From NCBI RefSeq assembly GCF_024223415.1, contig NZ_CP100502.1: DNA of 64,000 bases. The stretch is one strand, 5' to 3'. The stretch is from Escherichia coli. Lineage in GTDB: Bacteria > Pseudomonadota > Gammaproteobacteria > Enterobacterales > Enterobacteriaceae. The notes under the pieces are model-generated. The model saw nothing but the letters and a program-made list of their open reading frames with translations. It had not been told where the DNA came from and did not search any database. Shown here piece after piece: positions 5,960 to 23,035 of this stretch; the stretch's first letter is position 1, and every line of letters starts with the position of its first letter. A program made the translations under genes and the position numbers.

Positions 5960-6160
5960 ACGGTTCTGTGGACAAAATACCTGGTTACCCAGGCCGTGCC
6001 GGCACGTTAACCGGGCTGCATCCGATGCAAGTGTGTCGCTGTCGCCGGCCTCCTCACCCGGTCACGTTTCGTCGTTCCTCCTCCACGCGCTGCGGCTTCG
6101 GGGCCGCACCTGCATTCGTATGCGGTCGCCCGGTAACAGGTGCGGCACGGCCTGATGGAG
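5960..6160. repeat. GC-rich structured region with loose similarity to the family-A ssi-like repeat
   Basis: seq: 'gcatccgatgcaagtgtgtcgctgtcgccggcctcctcacccggtcac' resembles the family-A core 'gggatgcaagggtacgcttcgccgctgcggtcacccggtc'; lies directly upstream of the + strand ORF at 6185. Confidence 0.3.
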
Positions 6161-6184
6161 GCCGCATGTGAGAGGAGAATTCCC

Positions 6185-7111
6185 ATGCCAAACTGGTGCT
6201 CGAATCGTATGTATTTTTCTGGTGAACCGGCACAGATCGCTGAGATTAAACGACTGGCCAGCGGTGCAGTTACACCGCTTTATCGCCGCGCCACAAATGA
6301 AGGTATTCAGCTGTTTCTGGCCGGAAGTGCCGGACTTCTGCAGATCACTGAAAATATCCGCTCTGAACAGTGCCCCGGAGTGACGGCTGCCGGACGTGGT
6401 GCTGTATCGACGGAAAATATCGCGTTCACCCGCTGGCTGACACACCTGCAGAACGGTGTACTGCTGGATGAGCAAAACTGCCTGATGCTGCATGAACTCT
6501 GGCTGCAGAGCGGTACTGGACAGCGTCGCTGGGAAGGATTACCGGATGATGTCAGGGAAACCATCACTGTGCATTTCACCGCAAAAAGAGGTGACTGGTG
6601 TGACATCTGGGGTAGCGAGGATGTATCGGTGTGGTGGAACCGTCTGTGTGACAACGTAGTGCCGGAAAAAACCATGCCGTTTGACCTGCTGACGGTTCTG
6701 CCGACCCGCCTGGATGTTGAAGTGAATGGCTTTAATGGTGGTGTTCTGAACGGTGTTCCTTCTGCATATCACTGGTATACAGAACGGTATGGCGTGAAGT
6801 GGCCTTGTGGGTATGACCTGAATATCAGTAGTCAGGGAGACAACTGCATTCAGGTGGATTTCGACACGCCGTGGTGTCAGCCGGAAAGCGACGTTGTTGC
6901 AGCATTAAGCCGCCGTTTCGGCTGCACGCTGGAGCACTGGTACGCCGAACAGGGCTGCAATTTCTGTGGCTGGCAGTTGTATGAGCGCGGAGAGCTCGTT
7001 GATGTGCTCTGGGGGGAACTGGAATGGTCTTCCCCGACAGATGACGATGAGCTGCCGGAAGTCACCGGACCTGCGTGGATAGTCGACAAGGTGGCGCATT
7101 ACGGGGGATGA
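6185..7111 (+). CDS. Hypothetical Cys/Trp-rich protein
   Basis: seq: GAGAGGAG RBS before ATG 6185 (track ORF from 6140); many Cys and Trp ('NWCSNRMYF', 'FGCTLEHWYAEQGCNFCGWQ'); no motif I can name. Confidence 0.5.
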   Translation: MPNWCSNRMYFSGEPAQIAEIKRLASGAVTPLYRRATNEGIQLFLAGSAGLLQITENIRSEQCPGVTAAGRGAVSTENIAFTRWLTHLQNGVLLDEQNCLMLHELWLQSGTGQRRWEGLPDDVRETITVHFTAKRGDWCDIWGSEDVSVWWNRLCDNVVPEKTMPFDLLTVLPTRLDVEVNGFNGGVLNGVPSAYHWYTERYGVKWPCGYDLNISSQGDNCIQVDFDTPWCQPESDVVAALSRRFGCTLEHWYAEQGCNFCGWQLYERGELVDVLWGELEWSSPTDDDELPEVTGPAWIVDKVAHYGG

Positions 7112-7123
7112 AGTATGACGGAG

Positions 7124-7150
7124 ACGGGCGGGCAACCGCCCGTTTCTTTT
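7124..7150 (+). terminator. Rho-independent terminator
   Basis: seq: stem 'acgggcgg'/'ccgcccgt' with loop 'gcaa', then 'ttctttt', 13 nt after the stop of the 6185..7111 ORF. Confidence 0.55.
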
Positions 7151-7490
7151 CCGACAAAGGATGTCGCCGTGCTCCTCTGTTTACTGCGCCGGCTGATGCG
7201 GCGCGGCATAAACGCTGCCTGTGGTCAGTGTCCCGCGTCCGGCGGGCACGGGACGGGCGCTTTTACCGCTCCCGGCTGGCGTCGGTGACAGTGTACGCCA
7301 GCCTGTCGCCCTTTTCTGATGAACGCCCTTCAAGCCGCTTTCGCGGCATATTCTCGCCGTCAAAAAGACGACGGCTGCGATATTCCACGGTCGGCCTGAC
7401 CCGTTACCGGACGCGGTGAACAGCCCACAGGCAGCGGGGAACGGGCACCACAGGGGTGCCCTCCCGGTGCCCTCTGAGAAAGAAGGAGTG
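7150..7490. repeat. GC-rich hairpin-rich non-coding region (possible diverged ssi-like element) upstream of the methyltransferase
   Basis: seq: 340 nt with several hairpins (e.g. 'gggcaccacaggggtgccc') and weak resemblance to family B ('cgctcccggctggcg'). Confidence 0.2.
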
Positions 7491-7495
7491 TTGTT

Positions 7496-8179
7496 ATGTC
7501 CCGTTTTGTCCTCGGTAACTGCATTGATGTTATGGCGCGTATTCCTGATAACGGCATTGATTTCATACTGACTGACCCGCCATACCTCGTCGGTTTTCGT
7601 GACCGACAGGGGCGTACCATCGCCGGCGATAAAACCGATGAATGGCTGCAACCAGCCTGTAATGAAATGTATCGCGTACTCAAAAAAGATGCGCTGATGG
7701 TCAGCTTCTACGGCTGGAACCGCGTCGATCGCTTTATGGCCGCCTGGAAAAATGCGGGATTCAGTGTGGTTGGGCACCTGGTCTTCACCAAAAACTACAC
7801 ATCGAAGGCCGCATATGTGGGTTATCGCCACGAATGCGCCTACGTTCTGGCAAAAGGCCGTCCGGCGCTGCCTCAGAAGCCATTACCCGACGTGCTGGGC
7901 TGGAAATATTCAGGCAATCGTCATCACCCGACGGAAAAGCCTGTTACCAGCCTGCAACCACTGATTGAGAGCTTCACACATCCGAACGCGATTGTGCTGG
8001 ACCCGTTTGCAGGCAGCGGCTCAACCTGCGTGGCTGCCCTTCAGTCCGGACGCCGGTATATCGGTATCGAGCTGCTTGAGCAGTATCACCGTGCCGGACA
8101 GCAACGTCTGGCTGCCGTACAGCGGGCCATGCAGCAGGGGGCCGCAAATGATGACTGGTTTATGCCGGAGGCTGCGTAA
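7496..8179 (+). CDS. Orphan DNA adenine (N6) methyltransferase
   Basis: seq: 227 aa with 'FILTDPPY' (motif IV, DPPY) and 'DPFAGSGST' (AdoMet-binding motif I); GAAGGAG RBS. known: orphan MTases are common in plasmid leading regions. Confidence 0.85.
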   Translation: MSRFVLGNCIDVMARIPDNGIDFILTDPPYLVGFRDRQGRTIAGDKTDEWLQPACNEMYRVLKKDALMVSFYGWNRVDRFMAAWKNAGFSVVGHLVFTKNYTSKAAYVGYRHECAYVLAKGRPALPQKPLPDVLGWKYSGNRHHPTEKPVTSLQPLIESFTHPNAIVLDPFAGSGSTCVAALQSGRRYIGIELLEQYHRAGQQRLAAVQRAMQQGAANDDWFMPEAA

Positions 8180-8401
8180 ATGAACTATGCCGGACATGAA
8201 AAACTTCGCGCCGAAGTGGCGGAGGTGGCCAATGCCATGTGCGACCTGCGTACAACCATGAATGAGATGGAGCGGCGGTACAGCTTTAATGCTGACACCC
8301 TGCCGGAACGTCTGGTGCGTCAGACGTTGTTTCGCGCAAACCGCCTCCTGATGGAGGCATATACCGAAATTCTGGAACTGGATTCCTGCTTCAAAGATTG
8401 A
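8180..8401 (+). CDS. Hypothetical small protein
   Basis: seq: 73-aa ORF whose ATG directly follows the methyltransferase stop codon. Confidence 0.4.
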   Translation: MNYAGHEKLRAEVAEVANAMCDLRTTMNEMERRYSFNADTLPERLVRQTLFRANRLLMEAYTEILELDSCFKD

Positions 8402-8412
8402 GGGGAGAGAGT

Positions 8413-8847
8413 ATGTACGGAACATGCGAAATACTCTGCCGGGAGCTGGCAGCAAAGTATCCGGCAGACACGCCACTGATGCTGGTTGTCTGGTCCCCTG
8501 AAGAGATTCAGGCCCTCGCTGACGGAATGGATATTTCCCTGTCCGATCATGAAATCAGGACCGTCCTGGCGCGCCTGGAGGACATCCCGGAAGACCAGCG
8601 GATTGAGTCCGGTATTTCTTCCGGCGTGGCGATGGAGATTATCAGCAACGTGAGAGAAAACCGCCAGGTGACCGTCCCTGCTGAACTGCTGGCGTCCCTG
8701 ATTCAGACCGCTGAACAGGCACTGTGGAAACGTGAATGGGCCGCCCGTGATAACGGCCTTGCCGTCCCGGAATGTGTTACCCGCCGTCAGGCAGTGATTA
8801 ATCAGGCCCGCACCCTGCTGAAAAACAACACACACGAAAACAACTGA
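8413..8847 (+). CDS. Hypothetical protein, paralog of the 10558..10980 ORF
   Basis: seq: GAGGGGAGAGAG RBS before ATG 8413; 'MYGTCEIL...[14 protein letters not shown]...[17 protein letters not shown]' aligns with 'MYCTVKEI...SDDELETVMQRLDD...RHVTVPAMMLEKVMALA'. Confidence 0.5.
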
Positions 8848-8897
8848 TGTTATCGCCGCCTGCCCTGCGGGCGGCGATACAGGGAGAACGCTTAATC

Positions 8898-9668
8898 ATG
8901 AACAAAACGCTGAATGCACTGGTTTGTCGTCACGCCCGTAACCTGCTGCTGGCGCAGGGCTGGCCGGAAGAGACGGATGTTGACCAGCGAAATCCGAACT
9001 ATCCGGGCTGGATCAGCATTTACGTGCGGCTGGATGCGCCCCGGCTGGCGACGTTACTTATCAACCGTCACGGCGGCGTACTGCCGCCGCTCCTGGCCTC
9101 CGCCATTCAGAGACTGACCGGAACCGGGGCGGAACTGGTACTGTCCGGCAGTCAGTGGCAGTCGCTGCCGGTACTTCCGGCAGACGGAACGCAGGTGTCT
9201 TTCCCGTATGCCGGAGAATGGCTGACCGAAGACGAAATCAGGGCTGTTCTTGATGCGGTGCACGATGCGGTACGAAGCATCTGTTACCAGGTGGCAGAAG
9301 ATGCGCGGCGTATCCGTGCGGCGCTGACCACCACCGGTCAGACGTTGCTGACCCGCCAGACGCGCCGCTTTCGCCTGGTCGTGAAGGAAAGCGATCACCC
9401 CTGCTGGCTCGATGAAGATGACGAAAACCTGCCCGTGGTGCTCGATGCCATCGTGAACCGGGGAGCACGTTTTTCGTCGGTGGAAATGTACCTGGTCAGC
9501 GATTGTATTGAGCATATCCTGTCCTGTGGGCTGGCCTGCGATGTGCTGCGTATACCCGATGAACCGCCCCGCCGCTGGTTTGACCGTGGTGTTCTGCGGG
9601 AGGTGGTCCGGGAAGCCCGGACCGAAATCCGCAGCATGGCGGATGCCCTGGCAAAAATCCGGAAATGA
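8898..9668 (+). CDS. Hypothetical protein
   Basis: seq: GGGAGA RBS before ATG 8898 (track ORF from 8847, overlapping the previous stop); last gene of a four-gene cluster. Confidence 0.45.
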
Positions 9669-9726
9669 TGACACTGGCGGGGTAAATCCCCGCCTTTTTC
9701 CTGCCGGTCCCCGGACAGAGCACAAA

Positions 9727-10057
9727 GGAAGTCGCCGCCGGCTCCGCTTTACCCGGCCATGCGGGGCATGGCCTTGTGGGTTTTCAGTTATGTGGCCACC
9801 GTGTCGTGTGCGGGCTGTGCCGTGCCTCCATCTTAGCCGGGCTGGCAGGGATGCAAGGGTACGCTTCGCCGCTGCGGTCACCCGGTCCCTCCTTCCCGTC
9901 TGCCGTGATTTTCCGGTCGTTCACCCGCTCAGATTTCGCGGTCTCACCCTCCAACTCCCGCCAGCCGTGTGCGTCAGGCTGCGGCTTCCCTTGCGCCCTG
10001 TGCATCCCCGCCTTATCGCCCGGCTTTTATGGAGGCACGGCACCGCCCGGTGTCGCG
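9727..10057 (+). repeat. Family-A ssi/Frpo-like repeat, copy A1
   Basis: seq: about 330 nt nearly identical to 16711..17041, GC-rich and hairpin-rich, ending about 30 nt before a gene start. known: IncI1 and F leading regions carry ssi/Frpo single-strand promoters. Confidence 0.6.
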
Positions 10058-10085
10058 GAATATGTGAACAACGGAGGAATACATC

Positions 10086-10511
10086 ATGCAATATGCGAAA
10101 CCTGTCACTCTGAATGTTGAAGAGTGCGACCGTCTGTTTTTTCTGCCTTACCTGTTTGGCCAGGATTTTCTGTATGTCGAAGCGTCTGTGTACGCGCTGG
10201 CGAAAAAAATGATGCCGGAATATGAAGGCGGATTCTGGCACTTCATCCGCCTGCCGGACGGTGGCGGCTACATGATGCCGGATGGCGACCGTTTCCACAT
10301 AGTGAACGGTGCAAACTGGTTTGACCGTACCGTGAGTGCTGATGCCTGCGGCATCATTCTGACTTCCCTTGTGATTAACCGCCAGTTGTGGCTGTACCAC
10401 GACAGCGGTGATGCAGGACTGACCCAGCTTTACCGGATGCGCGATGCGCAGTTGTGGCGTCACATCGAATTTCACCCTGAATGCAACGCGATTTACGCGG
10501 CTCTGGACTGA
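10086..10511 (+). CDS. klcA: KlcA/ArdB-family antirestriction protein
   Basis: seq: 141 aa, '[51 protein letters not shown]' resembles KlcA/ArdB from memory; GGAGG RBS. Confidence 0.65.
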
Positions 10512-10557
10512 TTAACGGACGGGGCGGCAATGCCGCCCCTGTAAAGGAGACGAGAAA

Positions 10558-10980
10558 ATGTACTGTACTGTTAAAGAAATTATCCGCGAAGTGCTGGATA
10601 CAGACGTGCCGGACAGTGAATGCGTTTTTGCCGTGGTGCTGACCCGTGGGGATGTGCGTCACATAGCCCAGGACTGGAACCTGTCAGACGATGAGCTGGA
10701 AACCGTCATGCAGCGGCTGGACGATGCCTTTGAGCATGGTGCGGATGTCAGCGTTGTTCACGACGTTGTTCGTGAACTGATGGAAGAAAAGCGCGCCAGC
10801 CGTCATGTGACAGTCCCGGCGATGATGCTGGAAAAAGTGATGGCGCTGGCAGGCAGTGAAATGAAGCGCCTGTATGCCGTCGGAAGTGAGAACGGGGGCG
10901 ACGGTGACGCATTCGTCAGGGAGGAACGCGAAGCAATGGACGTTGTGTTACAGGCGCTGGACGGGGAGACGATGTCATGA
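10558..10980 (+). CDS. Hypothetical protein, paralog of the 8413..8847 ORF
   Basis: seq: AAGGAG RBS; shared blocks with the 8413 ORF (see there). Confidence 0.5.
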   Translation: MYCTVKEIIREVLDTDVPDSECVFAVVLTRGDVRHIAQDWNLSDDELETVMQRLDDAFEHGADVSVVHDVVRELMEEKRASRHVTVPAMMLEKVMALAGSEMKRLYAVGSENGGDGDAFVREEREAMDVVLQALDGETMS

Positions 10981-11168
10981 ATATCAGCACAGAAACCCGC
11001 GAAATTCTGCGTAATTACAGGGCCGTGATTAATGCGCGGCGTCGTGAAATGGGGCAGAAACCGCTCACCACCGCGCAGATTGTTGATGAAATCTGCGATT
11101 TTGTGGCGAATCAGCAGGCGGTTTTCCTGGGCGGTCACTACATCTTACAGGGCAGCAGAAACAGGTGA
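10977..11168 (+). CDS. Hypothetical small protein
   Basis: seq: 63-aa ORF overlapping the preceding stop (ATGA). Confidence 0.3.
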   Translation: MNISTETREILRNYRAVINARRREMGQKPLTTAQIVDEICDFVANQQAVFLGGHYILQGSRNR

Positions 11169-11199
11169 TACAGGGGCAGGCGGTGGAGGCCGCCTGTCA

Positions 11200-11905
11200 G
11201 CCCGCGCGAAAACCCCTGGCAGGCTGACGCCTGCCGGAAGGGAAGCGGGCCACGCTGGCGCGTCGCCCGTTACCCTTCCCGTCTGTGATGTGTCTGACTC
11301 AGGAGTGTTTCTTTCTTATGTTATGGAACTGTTCCTGATGTTGTTGTTCCTTTATCTGCTGCTCTGATTCTGACTACTGCAGTGTTGTTCTGTCTGCCGG
11401 GCGCACCTTCGGCTCCCGGCTGCCTGGCGGCATCCGGTCGTCAGGCCCGACTCCGACAGGCAGCTGCTGGCGCACCCGCCAGTCTCCGCCGAACCCGCTG
11501 GCGCGGTTTCGGGCTGTCGCTACGGTCCGATGCGTGAAAACCCGGGCTTGCAGCGACCGTTCCGGTCGCGCCGCCTCTGTCGCGCCGTGACCTGCGCTCC
11601 CTGCACACCTGACGGTGTGTGAGGAAACTGCGCCTGATGGCGCAGCAGTCCTCCCTCCTGCCGCCACCTCTGCGGCCTGTTTCCCGCTGTGGACTTTCCG
11701 GGGGGCAGACGTAACCCCCTCCCGTTCCATCTGTCCAGGGTGAGATGCACCGGCCACAAAATTTTTAGCCATGAACCCGGCAAAAAATTTTGCGTCCGCC
11801 CCCGGACAGCTGTCCCGTGAGGCGGTAAACGGGCCCCCATCGGAAAGGTCCACTGCGGGGAGAAACCCCTGTGAAGTGGACGGCAGGAGGAGCTTTCGCT
11901 CCTCT
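11200..11905 (+). repeat. Family-B ssi/Frpo-like repeat, copy B1
   Basis: seq: long GC-rich repeat shared with 17600..18250 and partly with 20815..21140 (e.g. 'caccttcggctcccggctgcctggcggcatccggtcgtcaggcccgactccgacaggcag'); ends about 70 nt before ssb. Confidence 0.55.
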
Positions 11906-11973
11906 GAAGGGGCACATGAACGTCCCGTCTCCGGTATCCGGTTTATCTCACATCTTTCAGTCAGGAGGTTCTT

Positions 11974-12501
11974 ATGAGTGCACGTGGTATCAACAAGGTC
12001 ATCCTCGTCGGGCGTCTGGGCAATGATCCGGAGGTCCGTTACATCCCCAACGGTGGCGCAGTGGCAAACCTGCAGGTGGCCACGTCAGAAAGCTGGCGCG
12101 ACAAACAGACGGGGGAGATGCGGGAGCAGACGGAATGGCACCGTGTTGTGCTGTTCGGCAAGCTCGCGGAAGTGGCAGGTGAATATCTGCGCAAGGGCGC
12201 GCAGGTCTACATCGAGGGGCAACTCCGTACCCGTAGCTGGGACGACAACGGCATCACCCGCTACATCACTGAAATTCTTGTTAAGACCACGGGCACCATG
12301 CAGATGCTGGGGAGTGCACCACAGCAGAACGCTCAGGCGCAACCGAAGCCTCAGCAGAATGGGCAGCCACAGAGTGCTGACGCGACGAAAAAAGGTGGCG
12401 CGAAAACGAAAGGCCGTGGACGTAAGGCCGCGCAGCCCGAGCCTCAGCCGCAAACGCCGGAGGGGGAGGATTACGGGTTTTCAGACGACATCCCGTTCTG
12501 A
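11974..12501 (+). CDS. ssb: Plasmid single-stranded DNA-binding protein
   Basis: seq: '[48 protein letters not shown]...' is the canonical SSB OB-fold, with Gln/Pro-rich tail ending 'DIPF'; AGGAGG RBS. Confidence 0.95.
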
Positions 12502-12516
12502 TCGGGCTGACTGTGA

Positions 12517-12792
<276 letters not shown>

Positions 12793-12850
12793 GAGAGGTG
12801 CCGGACGCGCGAACGTCCGGCAGGACATAAGCAATTATAAGGGGATGATT

Positions 12851-14809
12851 ATGCCTGTAACGAAGTGTGAACCAGAAACCACCCGCAAAGCAAGCCGTAA
12901 ATCTGCAAAAACGCAGGAAACTGCCCTGTCTGCCCTGCTGGCGCAGACGGAGGAAGTGAGCGTGCCGCTGGCCTCACTGATTAAATCACCGCTGAATGTG
13001 CGCACGGTGCCGTATTCTGTGGAGTCCGTCAGCGAACTGGCTGGGTCCATTAAGGGCGTTGGCCTGTTGCAGAATCTGGTCGTGCATACCCTGCCTGGTG
13101 ACCGTTACGGTGTCGCCGCAGGTGGTCGCCGACTGGCTGCACTCAACATGCTGGCAGAGCGCAACATCCTTCCGGCTGACTGGCCTGTCCGTGTGAAGGT
13201 CATCCCGCAGGAACTGGCGACTGCCGCATCGATGACCGAGAACGGTCATCGTCGGGATATGCACCCTGCCGAACAGATTGCCGGATTCCGCGCATTGGCG
13301 CAGGAAGGCAAAACACCTGCACAGACTGGCGACCTGCTGGGCTATTCACCCCGCCACGTTCAGCGAATGCTGAAACTGGCAGACCTTGCGCCTGTCATCC
13401 TCGATGCGCTGGCAGAGGACCGCATCACCACCGAGCACTGTCAGGCGCTGGCGCTGGAGAGCGACACCGCGCGTCAGGTGCAGGTGTTTGAAGCGGCCTG
13501 CCAGTCAGGATGGGGCGGTAAACCGGATGTGCGGGTTATCCGCAACCTGATTACGGAAAGTGAAGTGGCAGTGAAGGACAACACTAAATTCCGCTTTGTG
13601 GGGGCTGATGCCTTCTCGCCAGACGAATTGCGCACCGATTTGTTCAGCGATGACGGGGACGGTTATGTCGACCGCGTGGCGCTCGATGCCGCCCTGCTGG
13701 AAAAACTCCAGGCTGTTGCAGAGTTCCTTCGGGAAGCCGAAGGCTGGGAATGGTGCGCCGGGCGCATGGAGCCTGTCGGTGAGTGCCGTGAGGATGCCGG
13801 AACATACCGCTGTCTGCCGGAGCCGGAAGCGGTGCTGACGGAGGCGGAAGACGAACGCCTGAACGAACTGATGACGCGTTACGACGCGCTGGAAAACCAG
13901 TGTGAGGAATCCGACCTGCTGGAAGCAGAAATGAAGCTGATGCGCTGCATGGCGAAGGTCAGAGCGTGGACGCCGGAGATACGTGCCGGAAGCGGTGTGG
14001 TGGTGTCCTGGCGTTATGGCAACGTATGTGTCCAGCGTGGTGTGCAGTTGCGCAGTGAAGATGACGCGACTGACGACGCTGACCGCACGGAACAGGTGCA
14101 GGAGAAAGCGTCAGTGGAGGAAATCAGCCTGCCGTTGCTGACGAAAATGTCCTCAGAGCGCACGCTGGCAGTCCAGGCGGCACTCATGCAGCAGCCGGAC
14201 AAATCTCTGGCACTGCTGGCATGGACGCTCTGCCTGAATGTGTTTGGCAGCGGGGCGTACAGTAAACCAGCACAAATCAGCCTGGAATGTGAACATTATT
14301 CGCTGACCAGCGATGCGCCATCGGGGAAGGAAGGTGCCGCATTCATGGCGCTGATGGCAGAAAAATCCCGTCTTGCAGCCCTGCTGCCGGAGGGATGGTC
14401 ACGGGACATGACGACATTCCTGTCCCTCAGTCAGGAGGTGCTGTTATCCCTGCTCAGTTTCTGCACCGCATGCAGCCTTAACGGTGTCCAGACCCGTGAG
14501 TGTGGTCACACGTCACGCAGTCCGCTTGACTCGCTGGAAAGCGCTATCGGATTCCACATGCGCGACTGGTGGCAGCCGACAAAAGCAAACTTCTTCGGAC
14601 ACCTGAAAAAGCCGCAGATTATCGCAGCCCTGAATGAGGCCGGACTGTCCGGTGCCGCACGGGACGCGGAGAAGATGAAGAAAGGTGATGCGGCTGAACA
14701 TGCAGAGCACCATATGAAAGACAACCGCTGGGTTCCAGGCTGGATGTGTGCACCACATCCACAGACAGATGCCACTGAACGCACCGATAACCTGGCTGAT
14801 GCCGCCTGA
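12851..14809 (+). CDS. Large ParB/Sulfiredoxin-domain (ParB-like nuclease) protein
   Basis: seq: N-terminal ParB-like region 'LIKSPLNVRTVPYSVESVSELAGSIKGVGLLQNLVVH...GGRRLAALNML'; AAGGGG RBS before ATG 12851 (track from 12761). known: a large ParB-like gene sits between ssb and psiB in F/IncI leading regions. Confidence 0.7.
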   Translation: MPVTKCEPETTRKASRKSAKTQETALSALLAQTEEVSVPLASLIKSPLNVRTVPYSVESVSELAGSIKGVGLLQNLVVHTLPGDRYGVAAGGRRLAALNMLAERNILPADWPVRVKVIPQELATAASMTENGHRRDMHPAEQIAGFRALAQEGKTPAQTGDLLGYSPRHVQRMLKLADLAPVILDALAEDRITTEHCQALALESDTARQVQVFEAACQSGWGGKPDVRVIRNLITESEVAVKDNTKFRFVGADAFSPDELRTDLFSDDGDGYVDRVALDAALLEKLQAVAEFLREAEGWEWCAGRMEPVGECREDAGTYRCLPEPEAVLTEAEDERLNELMTRYDALENQCEESDLLEAEMKLMRCMAKVRAWTPEIRAGSGVVVSWRYGNVCVQRGVQLRSEDDATDDADRTEQVQEKASVEEISLPLLTKMSSERTLAVQAALMQQPDKSLALLAWTLCLNVFGSGAYSKPAQISLECEHYSLTSDAPSGKEGAAFMALMAEKSRLAALLPEGWSRDMTTFLSLSQEVLLSLLSFCTACSLNGVQTRECGHTSRSPLDSLESAIGFHMRDWWQPTKANFFGHLKKPQIIAALNEAGLSGAARDAEKMKKGDAAEHAEHHMKDNRWVPGWMCAPHPQTDATERTDNLADAA

Positions 14810-14863
14810 TGAACAACCACACCGCCCCGCCGGAGACGGGGCGGCAGCAAGGGAGATACCGTG

Positions 14864-15298
14864 ATGAAAACTGAACTGACCCTGAATGCCCTGCAGTCCA
14901 TGAACGCACAGGAATATGAAGATATCCGTGCTGCGGGAAGCGATATGCGCCGTAATCTCACTCACGAGGTGATGCGTGAAGTGGACGCACCGGCTAACTG
15001 GATGATGAATGGCGAGTATGGCAGTGAGTTCGGGGGCTTTTTCCCCGTCCAGGTTCGTTTCACGCCAGCCCACGAACGTTTCCACCTGGCATTATGTTCG
15101 CCGGGAGACGTCTCTCAGCTCTGGATGCTGGTTCTGGTGAATTGTGGTGGACAGCCTTTCGCCGTCGTTCAGGTGCAACATATCTTCACGCCTGTCGCTA
15201 TCAGTCACACGCTGGCGCTTGCCGCGACACTTGATGCGCAGGGGTACAGTGTTAACGACATCATCCATATCCTGATGGCAGAAGGAGGTCAGGCATGA
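14864..15298 (+). CDS. psiB: Plasmid SOS-inhibition protein B
   Basis: seq: 144 aa '[32 protein letters not shown]...' recognised as PsiB; GGGAGA RBS; overlaps psiA by ATGA. Confidence 0.9.
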
Positions 15299-16014
15299 GC
15301 GCACGTTCACGGGCACTGATCCCCCTCAGCGCAGAGCAACAGGCCGCCATGCAGGCTGTGGCTGTCACCGAACAACGTCGTCGTCAGGGACGCACACTTT
15401 CAGCATGGCCTTATGCCAGCGCTTTCTTTCGCTGCCTGAATGGCAGTCGCCGGATTTCGCTGACCGATCTCCGCTTTTTTGCTCCTGCGCTGACGAAGGA
15501 GGAATTTCATGGCAACCGTCTCCTGTGGCTGGCTGCCGTGGATAAACTGATTGAAAGTTTTGGTGAAGTCTGTGTTCTTCCCCTGCCATCCGATGCGGGG
15601 CATCGTCTGTTCCCGTCCGTTCCTTTTCGTGAAGGTGAGCGGCGTCGTCAGAAAACCACGCTGACAGAGCAGAAATACAGCCGCCAGCGGGAACGTGAGG
15701 CAGAACGACGGGAACTGGAATACCAGACATGTTTTGCTCAGGCGCAGATTGACCTTGCGTTTCATACTCCCGCCACGGTCGGAAGCTGGTTGTCCCGCTG
15801 GTCTGGTGTTGTTGAGGAGCATGATCTGGAAACGATTTTCTGGGGGTGGTGCGGGCGTTTTCCATCACTGTCATCATTTGACCGGTTTTTCTGGCAGGAG
15901 GAACCACTCTGGCGGCTGATTTTTGAAGCCGGTGAGGCCGGTCGTGGTGCACCGGTACAGGTACGTGCACTTGAGCAGTGGATGATCCCGAACAAGCTGG
16001 AGAACGCAATATGA
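15295..16014 (+). CDS. psiA: Plasmid SOS-inhibition protein A
   Basis: seq: 239 aa directly coupled to psiB; size and position match PsiA. Confidence 0.85.
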
Positions 16015-16607
16015 TGAAATCAGACGAACAATATCAGGTTCCCGTGTGGATGCGACCTCTGTTGCCGTTGCTCTGCAATACCGGTGGTAATGATCCGGAG
16101 GAACTGCTGAATGATACAGAAACCACCGCCAGTGCGAATATTGTCCGTTATGTACTGATAGTTGCAGTGCGGTCGCAGATTGATCTGCTGCAGCTACTGT
16201 ACAGGAAAGGACTGTTGCGCACAGAGATACCAGGTGGCTTTTCACCGGAAGAAGCGCAGGAACTCCTGGATAATCTGGTGCGCAGCCATATCAGCAAGGC
16301 GTTGTCGGGTGAGCGAATGGCAGCCCGTGACAGAAATGCCGATCTGACCTGGATTCGCCAGCAACTGGTCGATGCCGCCTGGTTTGTCCGTGCCACACTG
16401 GAAGCGCATGGGATGGGCGTCGGAAATGAGAGTCCCTCTGCTCCGCCGGAGACAATGCCGGACATACAGACACGGGAACTGGTTATGTTGATCAAGCGAC
16501 TGGCATCATCGCTGAAAGCGGTGAAACCCGACAGTAGCGTGGTGCGTGAAGCGCAGGACTGGCTGTGCGACAGAAAACTTGTGGATATCACAGATATTCT
16601 CCGGTGA
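16011..16607 (+). CDS. Hypothetical protein
   Basis: seq: ATG 16011 overlaps the psiA stop (track ORF from 15978). Confidence 0.45.
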   Translation: MMKSDEQYQVPVWMRPLLPLLCNTGGNDPEELLNDTETTASANIVRYVLIVAVRSQIDLLQLLYRKGLLRTEIPGGFSPEEAQELLDNLVRSHISKALSGERMAARDRNADLTWIRQQLVDAAWFVRATLEAHGMGVGNESPSAPPETMPDIQTRELVMLIKRLASSLKAVKPDSSVVREAQDWLCDRKLVDITDILR

Positions 16608-16710
16608 ACCAGACATGTATATTTTACGCAGGGACACGCCGATCATGATCGTTTCATATCAGGGGTGGTCTGGAGGTCATGCGGCGTGTCCTCTGCACTC
16701 GCCGGAATAA

Positions 16711-17041
16711 GGAAGTCGCCGGCGGCTCCGCTTTTACCCGGCCATGCGGGGCATGGCCTTGTGGGTTTTCAGCTCTGTGGCCTCAGCGTCGTGTGCGGGC
16801 TGTGCCGTGCCTCCATCTTAGCCGGGCTGGCAGGGATGCAAGGGTACGCTTCGCCGCTGCGGTCACCCGGTCCCTCCTTCCCGTCTGCCGTGATTTTCCG
16901 GTCGTTCACCCGCTCAGATTTCGCGGTCTCACCCTCCAACTCCCGCCAGCCGTGTGCGTCAGGCTGCGGCTTCCCTTGCGCCCTGTGCATCCCCGCCTTA
17001 TCGCCCGGCTTTTATGGAGGCACGGCACCGCCCGGTGTCGC
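16711..17041 (+). repeat. Family-A ssi/Frpo-like repeat, copy A2
   Basis: seq: near-identical to 9727..10057; ends about 30 nt before ardA. Confidence 0.6.
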
Positions 17042-17069
17042 AGAACATGTGACTATGGAGGATTCGGGA

Positions 17070-17570
17070 ATGTCTGTTGTTGCACCTGCTGTATACGTTG
17101 GAACCTGGCACAAATACAACTGTGGAAGCATCGCTGGCCGCTGGTTTGACCTGGCCACGTTTGATGATGAACGCGACTTTTTCGCCGCCTGCCGCTCTCT
17201 TCACCAGGATGAAGCCGATCCTGAACTGATGTTTCAGGATTATGAGGGATTCCCGGGGAATATGGCCTCAGAATGCCATATCAACTGGGCCTATGTTGAA
17301 GGCTTCCGCCAGGCGCGGGATGAAGGCTGCGAAGAGGCTTATCGTCTCTGGGTGGATGATACCGGTGAGACGGATTTTGACACCTTCCGCGATGCCTGGT
17401 GGGGCGAGGCTGACAGTGAGGAGGCTTTTGCGGTTGAGTTCGCCAGTGATACCGGCCTGCTGGCTGACGTGCCGGAGACGGTGGCGCTCTATTTTGACTA
17501 TGAGGCGTATGCGCGGGATTTATTCCTGGACTCCTTCACCTTTATTGACGGTCATGTGTTCCGTCGGTGA
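17070..17570 (+). CDS. ardA: ArdA antirestriction protein (type I R-M inhibitor, DNA mimic)
   Basis: seq: 166 aa '[28 protein letters not shown]..' recognised as IncI1 ArdA, acidic C-terminal half; GGAGG RBS. Confidence 0.9.
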
Positions 17571-17599
17571 TTTACTCCCCCGCTCCGGCGGGGGTATGG

Positions 17600-18250
17600 C
17601 CTGCCAGGCCGCCGGAAAACCCTGGCAGGCTTACGCCTGCCTGAAATGCAGGAGGGCCGCGCCTGCGGCGCTGCCCTTCCTGCCCGTCATGGTGTGAGGC
17701 ATTTTTCTGTTATGTCGTTTCTGTTGTTCTGATTTCCGGAGGCGGGGACACCTTCGGCTCCCGGCTGCCTGGCGGCATCCGGTCGTCAGGCCCGACTCCG
17801 ACAGGCAGCTGCTGGCGCACCCGCCAGTCTCCGCCGAACCCGCTGGCGCGGTTTCGGGCTGCCGCTACGGTCCGATGTCTGAAAAACCAGGCTTGCAGCG
17901 ACCGTTCCGGTCGCGCCGCCCCTGTCGCGCCGGAAACGGCGCTCCCTGCACACCTTACGGTGTGTAAGGCAACTGCGCCTGATGGCGCAGTCAACCCTTC
18001 CGCCGCCACCCCTGCGGCCTGTTTCCCGCTGTGGACTTTCCGGGGGCTGGAGTAACCACATCCCGTTTCAGCAGTCCAGGGGAAGATATACCGTCCACAA
18101 AATTTTTAGCCATAAACCCGGCAAAAAATTTTGCGTCCGCCCCCGGACAGCTGCCCCGTGACGTGGTGACGGACGCCCCATCGGAAAGGTCCACTGCGGG
18201 GAGAAACCCCGAAGAAGTGGACGGCAGAAGGGGCTTTCGCCCCTCCGGGG
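17600..18250 (+). repeat. Family-B ssi/Frpo-like repeat, copy B2
   Basis: seq: aligns along its length with 11200..11905; starts right after the ardA stop. Confidence 0.55.
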
Positions 18251-18298
18251 AGCAACCGGTCGGCCCGGCGACCTGATTCAGCAGAAGGAGATGTTTTC

Positions 18299-18733
18299 AT
18301 GACAGTCAGCAGCACGATTTCCGTTTTTTGCCGCGACGGGGTGTTCCGTACCGTTTACTGCCACCTGCACGGGGAGCCGACCTGGAACGGTCGCATCCTG
18401 CATACTCACTATGCCACCGGTCAGCAGGCCGAAGCCCTGGTTGAACACGGTGATATCCGTTGCCTCGGTCCCCGTTGTGACAAACCCGCCGGGCATACGC
18501 TTCAGAACCCGGTGGACGGTGTGACGGCTTATTACGGACGTGACAGTGGTTTCCGGATGGACAGTGAGGCGCGTGAGTACCGTTCTTTCAGGGAGGCTAT
18601 TGCCACTGAAAGCACTGAAGAGGTGCGCTTCCATTATGTGTTCATCGACGGCTACTGGAAGGTGATGTACCGCACGCCGGAAGGCTGGAAGATGAAAGCG
18701 CTCGCGCTGGCACTGCGTCGCTGTCCGAAATGA
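18299..18733 (+). CDS. Hypothetical protein
   Basis: seq: 144 aa with strong AGAAGGAG RBS, first gene downstream of copy B2. Confidence 0.5.
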   Translation: MTVSSTISVFCRDGVFRTVYCHLHGEPTWNGRILHTHYATGQQAEALVEHGDIRCLGPRCDKPAGHTLQNPVDGVTAYYGRDSGFRMDSEAREYRSFREAIATESTEEVRFHYVFIDGYWKVMYRTPEGWKMKALALALRRCPK

Positions 18734-18824
18734 AAAAAAGGCAGGGCGATAAACCCTGCCTCTCTCCGCCGTTACTTCCCCGCCAGGAAGAGCGGCAGTC
18801 ATCAACAACATAAGGAGTAATATT

Positions 18825-19091
18825 GTGAGACCATCAATTATCTTCGCAACCGCCGAGTATGTAAAGCGTCTGCGTGAAGAGTGCCTGCGGGAGAATAAAC
18901 CCCTGCACCGCCATACCCGCTTCAGACGTCAGGAGCTGGCACAGGATGAGATTAACCCGGACGTCCTGGCGATGAGCGGCCATATCGCCAGACGCTGCAG
19001 TGAGCAGAAGCGGGTGCGTATCCCCGCTATGAAAGTCAGCGAATGGGGCCACCTGCTCCGCGCGCTTGAAATTGAGCGGGTCTGCCACTGA
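18825..19091 (+). CDS. Hypothetical small basic protein
   Basis: seq: 88 aa, GTG start with AAGGAG RBS. Confidence 0.4.
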   Translation: MRPSIIFATAEYVKRLREECLRENKPLHRHTRFRRQELAQDEINPDVLAMSGHIARRCSEQKRVRIPAMKVSEWGHLLRALEIERVCH

Positions 19092-19155
19092 TTAACCCTT
19101 GCCGTCTGCCTGTGCAGGCGGCAGGATACGTTCAGACATCTCACCAGGAGGAACC

Positions 19156-20097
19156 GTGAGTAAGAAGAAAAACACCACAACGCCCACGCCGCATGATGCC
19201 GCGTTCCGGTCGTTCCTGGCGAATCCCGACGTCGCCAGAGATTTTCTGGAACTGCATCTTCCTGCGGAGTACCGGCAGTTGTGCGACCTGTCCACGCTGA
19301 AGCTGGAACCCGCCACCTTTGTTGAGCCGGACCTGCATCAGTACGCCAGCGATATCCTCTGGAGCGTGAAAACCACCGGGGGTGAAGATGGTTATGTTTA
19401 TACGCTCATCGAGCACCAGAGCACCGAAAATCTGTACATGCCTTTTCGCATGTTACGCTACAGTGTGGCGGCGATGCAGAGACATCTGGAGCAGCACAAA
19501 ACGTTGCCACTGGTCATTCCGGTGCTGTTCTATCACGGTGAGCGCAGCCCGTACCCGTACAGCATGAACTGGCTGGACTGTTTTGAGAATCCGGCGCTTG
19601 CGGCTAAAATATACACAAAGCCGTTTCCGCTGGTTGATATCACTGTCGTTGATGACAATGAAATCATGAACCATCGCCGGATGGCCGCACTGACGCTGCT
19701 GATGAAGCATATCCGTCAGCGGGATATGCTGATGTGTCTGGACAACCTGGTCAGAGCACTGCAGGACATCCAGGATGAAGAGCAGATTACAGTTCTTTTC
19801 AACTATCTGCTTAATGGCAGCGAACATGTAACGGTTGAATTTTTGCAGACGCTGGCGCAGCGACTGCCGCAGCACGAGGACAGCATTATGACACTGGCAG
19901 AACGTCTTAAGCAGGAAGGTATCCAGCAAGGTATCCAGCAGGGTATCCAGCAGGGTATCCAGCAGGGAGTTCAGCAGGGGGCGCTTCAAAAAGCACGGGA
20001 AATCGCCCGGGAGCTCCGGAACGCGGGAATGCCGGCAGCACAAATCTGTCAGCTGACCGGACTTTCTGAAGCTGAACTGAAGAACATCACTCACTGA
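19156..20097 (+). CDS. rpn: Rpn-family (YhgA-like, PD-(D/E)XK) recombination-promoting nuclease
   Basis: seq: GTG 19156 with CAGGAGG RBS (track from 19099); N-terminal 'HDAAFRSFLANPDVARDFLELHLP...YASDILWSV...YTLIEHQSTE' matches the YhgA/Rpn family from memory. Confidence 0.75.
   Translation: MSKKKNTTTPTPHDAAFRSFLANPDVARDFLELHLPAEYRQLCDLSTLKLEPATFVEPDLHQYASDILWSVKTTGGEDGYVYTLIEHQSTENLYMPFRMLRYSVAAMQRHLEQHKTLPLVIPVLFYHGERSPYPYSMNWLDCFENPALAAKIYTKPFPLVDITVVDDNEIMNHRRMAALTLLMKHIRQRDMLMCLDNLVRALQDIQDEEQITVLFNYLLNGSEHVTVEFLQTLAQRLPQHEDSIMTLAERLKQEGIQQGIQQGIQQGIQQGVQQGALQKAREIARELRNAGMPAAQICQLTGLSEAELKNITH
19888..20097 (+). CDS. Candidate intragenic small protein (RpnS-like), in frame with the rpn C-terminus
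   Basis: seq: internal ATG 19888 preceded by GAGGA at 8 nt spacing; would encode 'MTLAERLKQEG(IQQG)n...ALQKAREIARELRNAG...'. infer: by analogy with Rpn/RpnS intragenic pairs. Confidence 0.3.
   Translation: MTLAERLKQEGIQQGIQQGIQQGIQQGVQQGALQKAREIARELRNAGMPAAQICQLTGLSEAELKNITH
19919..19978 (+). repeat. Five tandem 12-bp repeats (ggtatccagcag) encoding (GIQQ)n within rpn
   Basis: seq: ggtatccagcaa, ggtatccagcag x3, ggagttcagcag in tandem. Confidence 0.9.
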
Positions 20098-20109
20098 TGA
20101 GAGCCAAAA

Positions 20110-20134
20110 GGCCCGGCAAAATGCCGGGCCTTTT
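20110..20134 (+). terminator. Rho-independent terminator after rpn
   Basis: seq: perfect 9-bp stem 'ggcccggca'/'tgccgggcc', 3-nt loop, then TTTT. Confidence 0.7.
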
Positions 20135-20158
20135 GCCAGCAGGAGCAGAGAAAACAGT

Positions 20159-20329
20159 ATGACGATTGCAGAACGTCTTATACAGAAAGGTTTTGAAAAA
20201 GGTGCTCTTGAAGTGGCGCGGGAAATAGCCTGCCGGCTTCGGGATATGGGCTGGACGCCGGAACGGATTCAGGAGGCCACGGGACTTTCCGGTGAAGAAC
20301 TGAAAAAACTGTTTCCTGATGAGCAGTAG
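20159..20329 (+). CDS. Free-standing small protein resembling the Rpn C-terminal tail (RpnS-like)
   Basis: seq: 56 aa 'MTIAERLIQKGFEKGALEVAREIACRLRDMGWTPERIQEATGLSGEELKKLFPDEQ' aligns with the rpn tail 'MTLAERLKQEG...GALQKAREIARELRNAGMPAAQICQLTGLSEAELKNITH'; AGGAG upstream; below the track's 60-aa cutoff. Confidence 0.5.
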   Translation: MTIAERLIQKGFEKGALEVAREIACRLRDMGWTPERIQEATGLSGEELKKLFPDEQ

Positions 20330-20359
20330 CCTGGCATTCTGCCAGGCTGTGAACCACGC

Positions 20360-20611
20360 TCACACATCCTCTGCCGTTTCCCCCAGTTCATTTTCCAGAC
20401 GCCTGATGATATCTGCCTTGCGCATCCCCTGCATGTGAGGCAGCAGGTCACGGACTGAAAGTGCCTGGGTGGTCCTCCAGACGGTGACATCCACCTGTTC
20501 CGCATTTTCCCAGGCGTGCCATGTTCTCTGTGTCACGCCAAATTCTCTGGCCGCTTTTTCGCGTGACCAGAGCATGCTTTTTCGCCAGATTCGCAGTTCC
20601 CAGCCGGTCAT
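20360..20611 (-). CDS. Small helix-turn-helix regulator
   Basis: seq: 83 aa; 'REKAAREFGVTQRTWHAWEN' looks like an HTH; one of only two minus-strand genes in the leading region. Confidence 0.5.
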   Translation of the reverse strand: MTGWELRIWRKSMLWSREKAAREFGVTQRTWHAWENAEQVDVTVWRTTQALSVRDLLPHMQGMRKADIIRRLENELGETAEDV

Positions 20612-20625
20612 AAAACACCTTTGAA

Positions 20626-20712
20626 AAAGTGAAAAAACTTCACTTTATTTTATCACCATAACCACCAAATCAGCGCGAAAAATAAGTGTGAAAAAGTGAA
20701 GGAATTTCACTT
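20626..20712. promoter_or_regulatory. Two palindromic operator-like sites AAGTGAA-N5-TTCACTT upstream of the HTH gene
   Basis: seq: palindromes at 20627..20645 and 20694..20712. Confidence 0.4.
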
Positions 20713-20814
20713 TTTTTGATTGTAGGTGTCGTGCTGTTTTCTCTGTTTTCACCTGTGCGGGAGTGGTGTGCCAGTGACCACCACATGCCATTGTTGCGCC
20801 GTCGTTTTTCTTCA

Positions 20815-21140
20815 GTCGCGCCGGATGCGGCGCTCCCTGCACACCTTACGGTGTGTAAGGCCACTGCGCCTGATGGCGCAGCTGTCTCTGCCTGTCTGCC
20901 GCCGCACTGCGGCCTGTTCTCCGCAGATGGACTTTCCGGGGGTACATACACGACCACATCCCGTTTCAGTCGTCCAGGGGAGAGATGTACCAGCCACAAA
21001 ACTTTTTGCCGCAGGCGTCAAAAACTTTTGCGTCTGCCCCCGGACAACTGCCCCGTGACGTGGTGAGCGTCCCCCGTCGGAAAGGTCCACTGCGGGGAAA
21101 TCCCCGAAGACCCGGACGGCAGAAGGAGCTTCGCTCCTCC
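20815..21140 (+). repeat. Family-B ssi/Frpo-like repeat, copy B3 (5'-truncated)
   Basis: seq: matches the 3' two-thirds of B1/B2 from 'ggcgctccctgcacaccttacggtgtgtaagg' onward. Confidence 0.5.
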
Positions 21141-21187
21141 GGGAAATGACCTGGCTGACCCGGCAGTCGTGACGATGAGGAGACAAT

Positions 21188-22039
21188 GTGATGAATCAGA
21201 CTTTACCCACTGCTGACCTGAATACTGCCGGCACGACAGATGTTATTCCGTCTGTGGCCATCGACCGCATCATCGCGCAGCGTAACGAAGGTATTGCACT
21301 GTTCATGCAGGCGATGGAATGCCTGGCGACAGCGCGCAGGATTCTGCTTGATGCGTCAGGTGATATTTTTCTTTACGGTTTTGAAGACTGCGTGACCGAC
21401 TCCGTTCGGTGCATGGATAAACCGGAAGAAGCGAAAAGGAATATCACCCGTCTTGCCGACCGGAAAATCTGGGACCGCCTGATGACGGATACGGGGATGT
21501 ACACCTTCATGAGTTCATGTCAGCGTGATGAGTGGAACAGCCAGCTGATGAGCGACACCTGTCCTGAAATCACCCTGGACAATGTACTGGCAACTTTTCG
21601 CCATCTGAATGCCAGTAAGATGCAGACATTTGAACAGGGACTGATTGATGTCTACCGGAAATTGTCATGGGATTACAGAACCAATAATCCCTGCCGTCTG
21701 GGCAAGAGAATCATTATTGAAAACCTGCTGTACCGCTGGAGTAACGGGCGTGTTACGCTGGACTGCAGCGGACGGGAGGCACTGGATGACCTGGTACGTC
21801 CGTTTTATCTGCTGGAGGGGCGCAACGTTCCTGACTTCCGGAGCAGCATCGGGGCGCAGTACGGTGAATTTATCGGGAACGGCGACAATGTCGGTAAGCT
21901 GTTAGAAGGGGAATATTTTACGGTGCGTGGCTACCAGAAAGGGACCGTACACATTGTCTTTAAGCGTCCTGACCTTGTTGAAAAACTGAATGATATTATT
22001 GCACGGCATTATCCTGGTTCATTGCCGCCACGAGTCTGA
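21188..22039 (+). CDS. Hypothetical protein, oriT-proximal leading-region gene
   Basis: seq: 283 aa with GAGGAG RBS, directly after copy B3. Confidence 0.5.
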   Translation: MMNQTLPTADLNTAGTTDVIPSVAIDRIIAQRNEGIALFMQAMECLATARRILLDASGDIFLYGFEDCVTDSVRCMDKPEEAKRNITRLADRKIWDRLMTDTGMYTFMSSCQRDEWNSQLMSDTCPEITLDNVLATFRHLNASKMQTFEQGLIDVYRKLSWDYRTNNPCRLGKRIIIENLLYRWSNGRVTLDCSGREALDDLVRPFYLLEGRNVPDFRSSIGAQYGEFIGNGDNVGKLLEGEYFTVRGYQKGTVHIVFKRPDLVEKLNDIIARHYPGSLPPRV

Positions 22040-22648: not shown

Positions 22649-22692
22649 CATCTGGTCAGGGCTTCGCCCCGACACCCCGTAAGGAGCCTGAA

Positions 22693-23025
22693 GTGAGTGA
22701 TAGTGCGGTAAGAAAGAAAAGTGAGGTACGGCAAAAGACAGTTGTCAGGACACTCAGATTCTCTCCTGTTGAGGATGAAACCATCAGGAAAAAAGCTGAA
22801 GATTCCGGACTTACTGTATCTGCTTACATCCGAAATGCAGCACTGAATAAGCGAATTAACTCCCGTACAGATGATGCTTTTCTGAAGGAGTTAATGAGAC
22901 TGGGAAGGATGCAGAAGCATCTGTTTGTTCAGGGAAAAAGAACCGGTGACAAGGAATACGCAGAAGTGCTTGTTGCCATAACCGAACTTACAAATACATT
23001 GCGTAAACAGTTAATGGAAGGTTGA
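22693..23025 (+). CDS. nikA: Relaxosome accessory protein NikA
   Basis: seq: GTG 22693 with AAGGAG RBS gives 110 aa 'MSDSAVRKKSEVRQKTVVRTLRFSPVEDETIRKKAEDSGLTVSAYIRNAAL', matching R64 NikA in size and sequence from memory. Confidence 0.85.
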   Translation: MSDSAVRKKSEVRQKTVVRTLRFSPVEDETIRKKAEDSGLTVSAYIRNAALNKRINSRTDDAFLKELMRLGRMQKHLFVQGKRTGDKEYAEVLVAITELTNTLRKQLMEG

Positions 23026-23035
23026 GGATTCTCCG

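Follow-up and report, generated by a model that had tools for sequence, protein, structure and literature searches.

Several promoters of conjugative plasmids are formed by long imperfect hairpins on the transferred strand, which rebuild -35 and -10 elements and are active only on single-stranded DNA (ssDNA). The older ones include Frpo of F, originally identified as a single-strand initiation signal (Masai and Arai, 1997), and ssi1-3 of ColIb-P9 (Bates et al., 1999; Nasim et al., 2004). In early transconjugants of the IncI1 plasmid pESBL-EA11, six operons are strongly induced, with a large hairpin before each, and all six transcription starts have been mapped by rapid amplification of cDNA 5' ends (5'RACE; Wen et al., Nucleic Acids Research (NAR) 2025, PMC12672017). 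The expression burst decays as the DNA turns double-stranded. Wen et al. distinguish three classes: class 1, the strongest, comprises ssi1-3 and Frpo, class 2 the hairpins of klcA and ardA, and class 3 the promoter driving the methyltransferase M.EcoGIX. Here we analyse a 64,000-nucleotide (nt) stretch of Escherichia coli DNA (RefSeq assembly GCF_024223415.1, contig NZ_CP100502.1; the window), in which two nearly identical repeats, family A, stand directly upstream of two unrelated antirestriction genes. We consider it highly probable that family A elements are class 2 single-strand promoters that fire during conjugative entry by the mechanism set out below.

The family A element of F has been found independently under the name Frpo3 (bioRxiv 10.1101/2025.04.03.647016), and is ssp2 in the study of Fraikin, Yamaichi and Lesterlin (bioRxiv 2026; 10.64898/2026.01.09.698686). 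There, complementary-strand synthesis is shown to stall where the ssp2 stem ends, UvrD resolves the stall, and the element helps against the type I restriction system EcoKI. When ssp2 of F is swapped for ssp3, which has equal strength and no roadblock activity, transfer into recipients with a type II restriction-modification (R-M) system is restored, but transfer into EcoKI recipients is not. Deletion of ssp2 from F abolishes yfgB-dependent protection. That klcA and ardA have a promoter class of their own is already known, and because this was published in 2025-2026 the present analysis confirms rather than discovers it.

In a repeat search of the window, family A appears as a 300-nt direct repeat of 98% identity (9748-10047 and 16733-17032). 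Gapped blastn extends the copies to 9728-10079 (A1) and 16712-17062 (A2), with 96.6% identity over 352 nt; both lie on the - strand. A1 ends 7 nt before the ATG at 10086 and A2 ends 8 nt before the ATG at 17070. The 141-amino-acid (aa) product of the first gene (10086-10511, +) matches KlcA (PDB 2KMG, E 9.5e-18), ArdB (2WJ9, E 2.6e-6) and an anti-restriction PHROG, and the 166-aa product of the second (17070-17570, +) matches ArdA (2W82, E 1.4e-6) and anti-restriction PHROGs. The repeat coordinates and these homologies agree with an earlier note on this DNA, which had placed the family A copies directly upstream of klcA-like and ardA genes. NCBIfam gives no family assignment to KlcA, ArdA, DUF1281, YchA (8847-9668) or the small open reading frames (ORFs).

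The window contains the leading region of an IncI-type plasmid, which extends from 5.5 to 22.5 kb. Its sequence from 5.5 to 21.5 kb is 99.7% identical to IncI-gamma/K1 plasmids, such as pESBL-305, and similar sequence is present in at least 5000 plasmid records of Escherichia, Klebsiella, Salmonella and Shigella. The relaxosome genes nikA and nikB (22657-25735, +; starts at 22657 and 23036) mark oriT, which lies just to their left at about 22.1-22.6 kb. The genes of the six operons, from 6185 to 22039, all lie on the + strand and run towards oriT/nikA at 22.6 kb. The direction of IncI1 transfer is established (Bates et al., 1999, as cited elsewhere; Wen et al., 2025, PMC12672017). Taken together, the position of nikA/nikB and oriT, the gene orientation and the direction of transfer identify the - strand as the transferred strand and as the template for the six operons. 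In a consensus scan, none of the genes in these operons had a duplex sigma-70 promoter upstream on the + strand.

When the - strand is folded as ssDNA, each family A copy gives a single long and imperfect hairpin of about 240 nt (9810-10049 in A1 and 16795-17034 in A2). The folds are more stable than those of shuffled sequences, at -96.6 kcal/mol for A1 (z -4.6) and -96.7 kcal/mol for A2 (z -5.0). Covariation was followed in an alignment of the transferred strand of 13 elements from six plasmid types (the window, IncK2/Z, IncFIA, two Klebsiella IncFII plasmids, Leclercia, pRJF866 and Mixta plasmids). Their consensus structure comprises 60 pairs, and standard pairing is kept in 94.9% of cells, as opposed to 34-39% after a shift of the 3' partners by 1-3 columns. 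Compensatory changes are seen in 28 of the 60 pairs, and in 4-8 of them in the shifted controls. RNAalifold returned only 32 pairs from a MAFFT alignment of 64 sequences; the 13-sequence alignment was used because the variable hairpin tip aligned poorly among the 64. Of 64 unique elements, 63 fold better on the transferred strand than on the complement, the mean difference being 7 kcal/mol, and G:T pairs outnumber A:C mismatches by 19 to 7; as the elements are related sequences, these strand-bias figures are supportive and not independent.

The 3' arm of the family A hairpin, which corresponds to the non-template strand, reads CTTGCAT, 15 nt, TAAGAT, GGA and GGCACGGC. The -35-like hexamer TTGCAT is at 9851-9856 in A1 and 16836-16841 in A2, and the -10-like hexamer TAAGAT at 9830-9835 and 16815-16820, all on the - strand; in the fold, the -10 lies over a small AAA/AAG internal loop. 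Among 60 unique elements, a TAnnnT hexamer is found exactly 3 nt before GGCACGGC in every one, although the hexamer was not part of the search pattern. It follows TTGCAN after 15 nt in 54 elements and after 20 nt in six, and is variable at its three middle positions. The fixed T, A and T are the ones that matter most for -10 recognition by sigma-70. Counting 7 nt from the -10 hexamer and projecting onto the template arm, the start of the klcA operon is predicted at 10034-10038 (+), and the starts of the two operons near 10036 and 17021, some 50 nt ahead of the respective ATG. The published 5'RACE starts of the orthologous pESBL-EA11 promoters fitted hairpin-promoter predictions (PMC12672017). 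For these orthologues, 5'RACE and RNA-seq place the start within the stem base and show activity confined to single-stranded DNA in new transconjugants. The distance from the motif to the start codon is likewise fixed in family A, at 192-203 nt.

All six elements of the window are found at the same positions in pESBL-EA11, with identities of 95.5% for A1, 96.9% for A2, 98.6% for the class 3 element (C) and 98.7-99.4% for the three family B elements (B1-3). In F, an A element 98.0% identical to A1 stands upstream of yfgB (ArdB), with a C element at a greater distance upstream and B elements in front of ssb and ygeA. Family A thus shares with class 2 of pESBL-EA11, F ssp2 and Frpo3 the sequence family, the positions before klcA/yfgB and ardA, the hairpin and the orientation, and of the features by which class 2 is recognized it has the homology, a leading-region site, the transferred strand as template, and a stem-loop rebuilding -35 and -10. 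There is no essential difference between them; the window and pESBL have two copies and F has one. The copies in the window are 96-98% alike, compared with 89% for the two copies of IncK2/Z. The earlier note had proposed two promoter classes of different strength or timing, which separate anti-R-M from other establishment genes, and this is in line with the distinction of class 1 and class 2 published for the orthologous pESBL-EA11. Action on ssDNA goes beyond what that note had inferred.

The mechanism we propose takes its repeat, fold, covariation, conserved -35/-10, strand bias, gene association and orthology from this analysis, and its transcription starts, single-strand dependence, relative strength and roadblock activity from the literature. 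The - strand enters the recipient first, single-stranded and with its 5' end leading from oriT. On it, the A element folds into the GC-rich imperfect hairpin of about 240 nt, whose stem would imitate a duplex promoter, with the 3' arm supplying TTGCAT, 15 nt and TAAGAT as non-template strand and the -10 placed over the small internal loop. Host RNA polymerase would start about 50 nt before the start codon and proceed towards oriT, copying the transferred strand into klcA or ardA mRNA; the exact +1 in the window is a predicted one. Once the complementary strand is made, the hairpin would be lost and the promoter turned off, and antirestriction protein would be made in one brief burst.

Its homology to F ssp2 makes it probable that the hairpin holds up complementary-strand synthesis as well, until it is removed by UvrD, and the stall would keep the downstream genes single-stranded and expressed for longer. 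Both copies in the window may act in this way. Complementary-strand synthesis, presumably running in the same direction as transcription, would then reach A1 at 9.8 kb, re-prime at B1, and reach A2 at 16.7 kb. The A-driven cassettes are short (10086-11168 and 17070-17570) and each is directly followed by a class 1 element, an arrangement that suggests that each antirestriction cassette may be held single-stranded behind its own roadblock. Family B is the older and unrelated Frpo/ssi class 1, reported to serve also as a source of RNA primers.

Family B has three copies in the window, all on the - strand. B1 (11398-11940) is upstream of ssb (11974-12501), B2 (17743-18250) upstream of a 144-aa ORF (18299-18733), and the shorter B3 (20801-21142) upstream of a DUF4942 gene (21188-22039); the earlier note had also described these copies as preceding ssb and uncharacterised genes. 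Comparison of A and B within the window by blastn and nhmmer detected no sequence similarity. Since there is no significant match between A and B, while B matches the Frpo positions of F (before ssb and ygeA), family A is placed outside class 1 in spite of its Frpo-like function, and Frpo of F and ssi1-3 of ColIb-P9 are the counterparts of family B. The two classes are alike in the long imperfect hairpin by which the transferred strand rebuilds -35 and -10, in their leading-region site and orientation, and in being active only on ssDNA. They differ in that class 1 is reported to be stronger and to prime DNA synthesis instead of blocking it, and in that it precedes ssb, DUF905, parB-like and small unknown ORFs and, in this sample, never ardA, klcA or an M.EcoGIX-type methylase.

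Class 3 is represented in the window by an element at 5960-6170 (-), with a hairpin at about 5989-6154, a -35 TTGCAT at 6025-6030 and a -10 TAACGT at 6004-6009. The earlier note had pointed to a third, weakly A-like region here, and the resemblance is real: in a single-sequence nhmmer search of the whole window, 5959-6069 matches family A at E 0.008, and 5992-6066 matches a profile of eight A-like elements from outside the window at E 3.7e-10, with a second, collinear hit. By blastn the class 2 and class 3 elements are 72% identical over 71 nt, and over about 175 aligned columns the identity is 54-65%, the nearest class 2-like element being the one before the methylase of pRJF866. Classes 2 and 3 have in common the non-template arm (GACCGGG..CTTGCAT-15 nt-TAnnnT-3 nt-GGCACGGC) and a large part of the template arm, and in pRJF866-type plasmids the same methylase stands behind a full-length class 2-like element. 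Unlike class 2, class 3 lacks the distal stem (about 165 versus 240 nt; -50 versus -76 kcal/mol), and its motif is 121 nt from the start codon instead of about 197 nt. The class 3 hairpin was described as unlike all other hairpins (Wen et al., PMC12672017), and class 3/ssp3 is reported to be without roadblock activity (10.64898/2026.01.09.698686). The published descriptions that we examined contain no statement of a kinship between classes 2 and 3. The similarities indicate that class 3 is a shorter relative of class 2 with a common promoter arm, which may add modestly to what has been published.

The operon driven by class 3 opens with a gene (6185-7111, +) for an acidic DUF1281/Api92 homologue (2IJR, E 1.2e-46; isoelectric point (pI) 4.6, net charge -20). 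It has 11 Cys (3.6%), and is indeed the Cys-rich ORF that the earlier note had singled out. We found no functional literature on DUF1281/Api92, and the ORF is an anti-defence candidate by position only. The same operon carries an M.EcoGIX-type DNA methyltransferase (7496-8179, +; NF010253, E 6.8e-151), and M.EcoGIX protects pESBL against restriction on entry (PMC7736820). Between the two, an annotated 103-aa hypothetical protein (7108-7419) is extremely basic (pI 11.7) and rich in Arg and Ser, and may not be a real gene. In the IncK2/Z plasmid p4809.66 (locus L002, 7906-8459), the class 3 element is reduced to about its first 107 nt, and an extra copy of the basic 103-aa ORF between that element and DUF1281 indicates a rearrangement of the promoter region.

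The genes behind A- and B-type elements were compared in 10 plasmid loci and in a genome scan with the motif GACCGGGYGA-N-CTTGCA-N-GGCACGGC, covering one genome per species (GTDB representatives). The scan gave 48 loci, 42 of which are true family members. The other six (Rhodoferax, Devosia, Sorangium, Brevundimonas, Competibacteraceae and Planotetraspora) were discarded as chance hits in GC-rich sequence, having neither a profile match nor a long hairpin. All true members trace to Enterobacterales or to contigs that are likely mis-binned or contaminant, and include elements from Yersinia pestis, Salmonella arizonae, Erwinia, Pantoea, Mixta, Izhakiella, Kosakonia, Cedecea and Lelliottia.

The profile-defined A-type counts are from the genome loci only, and the B-type counts include also the plasmid loci L002-L010. 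The first gene behind an A-type element was ArdA 24 times, an M.EcoGIX-like methylase 13 times, KlcA 11 times, YchA three times, DUF1281 twice and a 153-aa ORF of no known family once, and none of these was found behind a B-type element. The first gene behind B-type elements was SSB (10), a 76-aa ORF (five), DUF905 (two), a ParB-like gene, the 144-aa ORF (orf18299) and DUF4942 (one each), or another ORF of no known family (five), none of which was found behind an A-type element; five elements of each type were followed by a contig end or by no called ORF. The M.EcoGIX-like methylase is counted here as antirestriction because M.EcoGIX protects pESBL on entry. No gene family occurs behind both types in the 10 plasmid loci and 42 species-representative genome loci, where the interchange of A and B before the same genes, which would speak against the proposal of the earlier note, was looked for. 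The plasmids in the census are related, and these counts are not independent events. The partition is also not absolute: A-like copies precede ychA, whose function is not known, and methylase-like genes occur in B-driven operons. One such operon, in locus L003, ends in an adenine methylase. In the window, the DUF4942 protein encoded behind B3 matches a DNA methyltransferase PHROG (E 1e-18), and a class 1 promoter may there also drive a modification function.

A-type elements stay associated with antirestriction genes in no fewer than five arrangements: klcA-DUF1380, klcA-ardA, ardA in the klcA slot, a stand-alone ardA after psiA, and an A-like copy followed directly by a methylase or ychA. Five non-IncI plasmids carry diverged ardA genes (52-61% protein identity), each with an A-type element upstream; in two of these plasmids the element precedes a klcA-ardA pair. 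The ardA copy of A in IncK2/Z is 95.7% identical to the klcA copy of IncFIA and 89% to the ardA copy of the window; A variants are thus uncoupled from the downstream gene, and have therefore been exchanged within the class and not with class 1. In a tblastn search of plasmids with KlcA, the matches listed were all at least 90% identical and gave no distant contexts.

Some further observations concern the A-driven cassettes themselves. In the window, klcA is followed by the remainder of a short A1-driven operon, a DUF1380 gene and a 63-aa ORF (10558-11168, +). The slot behind the A element is a variable cassette, holding klcA-DUF1380, klcA-ardA or ardA alone (10086-11168 in the window; loci L004, L006 and L007-L009). 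A 63-aa (192-nt) ORF follows the variable A-driven cassette in every annotated locus, the ORFs being equated by size and position. Each family A unit opens with a small GC hairpin and a T-rich run (GGCCATGCGGGGCATGGCC TTGTGGGTTTTC; 9754-9790 and 16739-16775), which resemble an intrinsic terminator on the + strand and may insulate the family A promoter from the upstream operon; in A1 a terminator-like site was flagged at 9760-9778. A MITE-like mobile repeat was considered as the identity of family A, and was rejected on account of the fixed orientation and the fixed distance to the start codon. In Citrobacter portucalensis (locus L047, NZ_MVFY01000016.1, 4117-3869, minus strand), a full-length A-like hairpin is followed 11 nt later by the acidic 153-aa ORF of the census (pI 4.45, net charge -14), which has no Pfam or NCBIfam match and is an antirestriction candidate by position.

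Several points weigh against the proposed mechanism. Covariation alone is silent on which strand folds, and the strand argument is one of energy asymmetry among related sequences. The transcription start in the window is a projection, and the window is known here from its sequence alone. The 15-nt spacer is short for sigma-70, and the existence of a natural variant with a 20-nt spacer makes the assignment of the -35 hexamer uncertain. The roadblock activity was demonstrated only for F, which is a one-copy plasmid. Hairpin stability was rejected as a sufficient cause of the roadblock, because the family B hairpins are at least as stable (-83 to -86 versus -76 kcal/mol for family A) and yet are reported to prime.

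Of the alternatives, the one that survives best concerns not the promoter but its gene association, which could reflect shared ancestry rather than function: an ancestral A-klcA module would have been copied, and any class of single-strand promoter would do as well. The sampled plasmids are indeed related Enterobacterales backbones whose counts are not independent, and in the window the chance that both A copies fall before the two antirestriction-led operons among six is 1 in 15. Methylase-like genes are also found in B-driven operons, and in F ssp3 could replace ssp2 for transfer into a type II R-M recipient. However, the same replacement failed with EcoKI recipients, the association survives at least five gene arrangements, and A variants have been swapped between klcA and ardA positions with no exchange with B in about 90 instances. 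We regard shared ancestry as an unlikely explanation of the association.

Could the A elements be mainly replication signals, acting as roadblocks or in priming, with transcription as a by-product? The stalling of complementary-strand synthesis at the stem end of F ssp2 is what such a signal would do, and Frpo was itself first found as a single-strand initiation signal. Against this, neither the -35 hexamer nor the -10 positions on which sigma-70 depends (TAnnnT) vary, the fixed motif-to-start-codon distance indicates selection on gene expression, and the loss of yfgB-dependent protection upon ssp2 deletion in F ties the element to the expression of its gene. A mainly replicative role is very improbable.

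A further alternative takes the A repeats for ordinary duplex promoter-operators, duplicated so that one repressor can co-regulate both genes. There is a precedent in IncN. Delver and Belogurov reportedly described in 1997 the CUP repeats of IncN pKM101, dispersed direct repeats in which lie the promoters for ardA, ardB and further leading-region genes. CUP repeats are described as duplex promoters under ArdK/ArdR repression. The IncN ardA locus in our sample (L005, CP055459.1) has no A, B or C match. It has a separate dispersed direct repeat of 141 nt before ardA (1-141, 1214-1354, 2846-2986 and 4187-4327), in which no inverted repeat was found and which probably represents the CUP repeats. 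Co-regulation of two antirestriction genes from one operator is plausible in itself, and dispersed repeats directly before ardA do occur in IncN, but the likeness to family A ends there, the sequences being unrelated. The scan for + strand sigma-70 sites was negative upstream of both klcA and ardA, the conserved -35 and -10 are on the opposite strand and in duplex DNA would point away from the genes, and the main conserved feature is a 240-nt hairpin with compensatory changes. The published burst, moreover, decays as the DNA becomes double-stranded (PMC12672017), and co-regulated duplex promoters are scarcely credible here.

That the hairpin instead acts as RNA, as a structured 5' leader, attenuator or small RNA, is hardly plausible either: the covarying hairpin would form in a + sense read-through transcript too, and a terminator-like hairpin opens the repeat, but an Rfam scan of the whole window found no match for the family A repeats, 63 of 64 elements fold worse in the + sense than on the - strand and wobble pairs speak for the latter, the predicted start lies in the stem base so that only about the last 13 nt of the hairpin would be transcribed, and the 5'RACE starts fit the hairpin-promoter predictions (PMC12672017).

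Two observations lie apart from these elements. The Rfam scan matched only the sok antitoxin RNA (134 bits) and the AgrB antisense RNA (55 bits), at 30490-30647 and 31272-31359, beyond nikA/nikB from the leading region. Short local direct repeats were also seen, one of 54 nt with 74% identity across the end of an Rpn gene, and an AT-rich 42-nt pair near a helix-turn-helix regulator gene (19879-20203 and 20612-20720).

With family A taken as class 2 single-strand promoters, a wider proposal can be put forward, which we hold only tentatively and somewhat doubt. Classes 2 and 3 may together be a single superfamily of promoters, set aside in Enterobacterales plasmids for anti-restriction cargo (ArdA, KlcA/ArdB and the single-strand methylase), and the two full-length copies of IncI-type plasmids may be separate roadblocks that divide the leading region into independently timed single-stranded windows. 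The possible additions of this work to the published picture are the motif that finds the family across genera, class 3 as a shortened relative of class 2, the gene census, and the presence here of two copies of the element whose F counterpart stalls second-strand synthesis.

Antirestriction proteins are needed before the incoming plasmid turns double-stranded and can be cut, and promoters that work only on the single strand solve that problem. Single-strand promoters in this way help resistance plasmids, such as IncI and IncF, to cross strain barriers. That the family stands almost only before antirestriction functions yields a short list of anti-defence candidates. If the superfamily proposal is true, the conserved motif would be a beacon for new antirestriction genes, and YchA, DUF1281 and the acidic 153-aa ORF of Citrobacter portucalensis would be the candidates to which it points.

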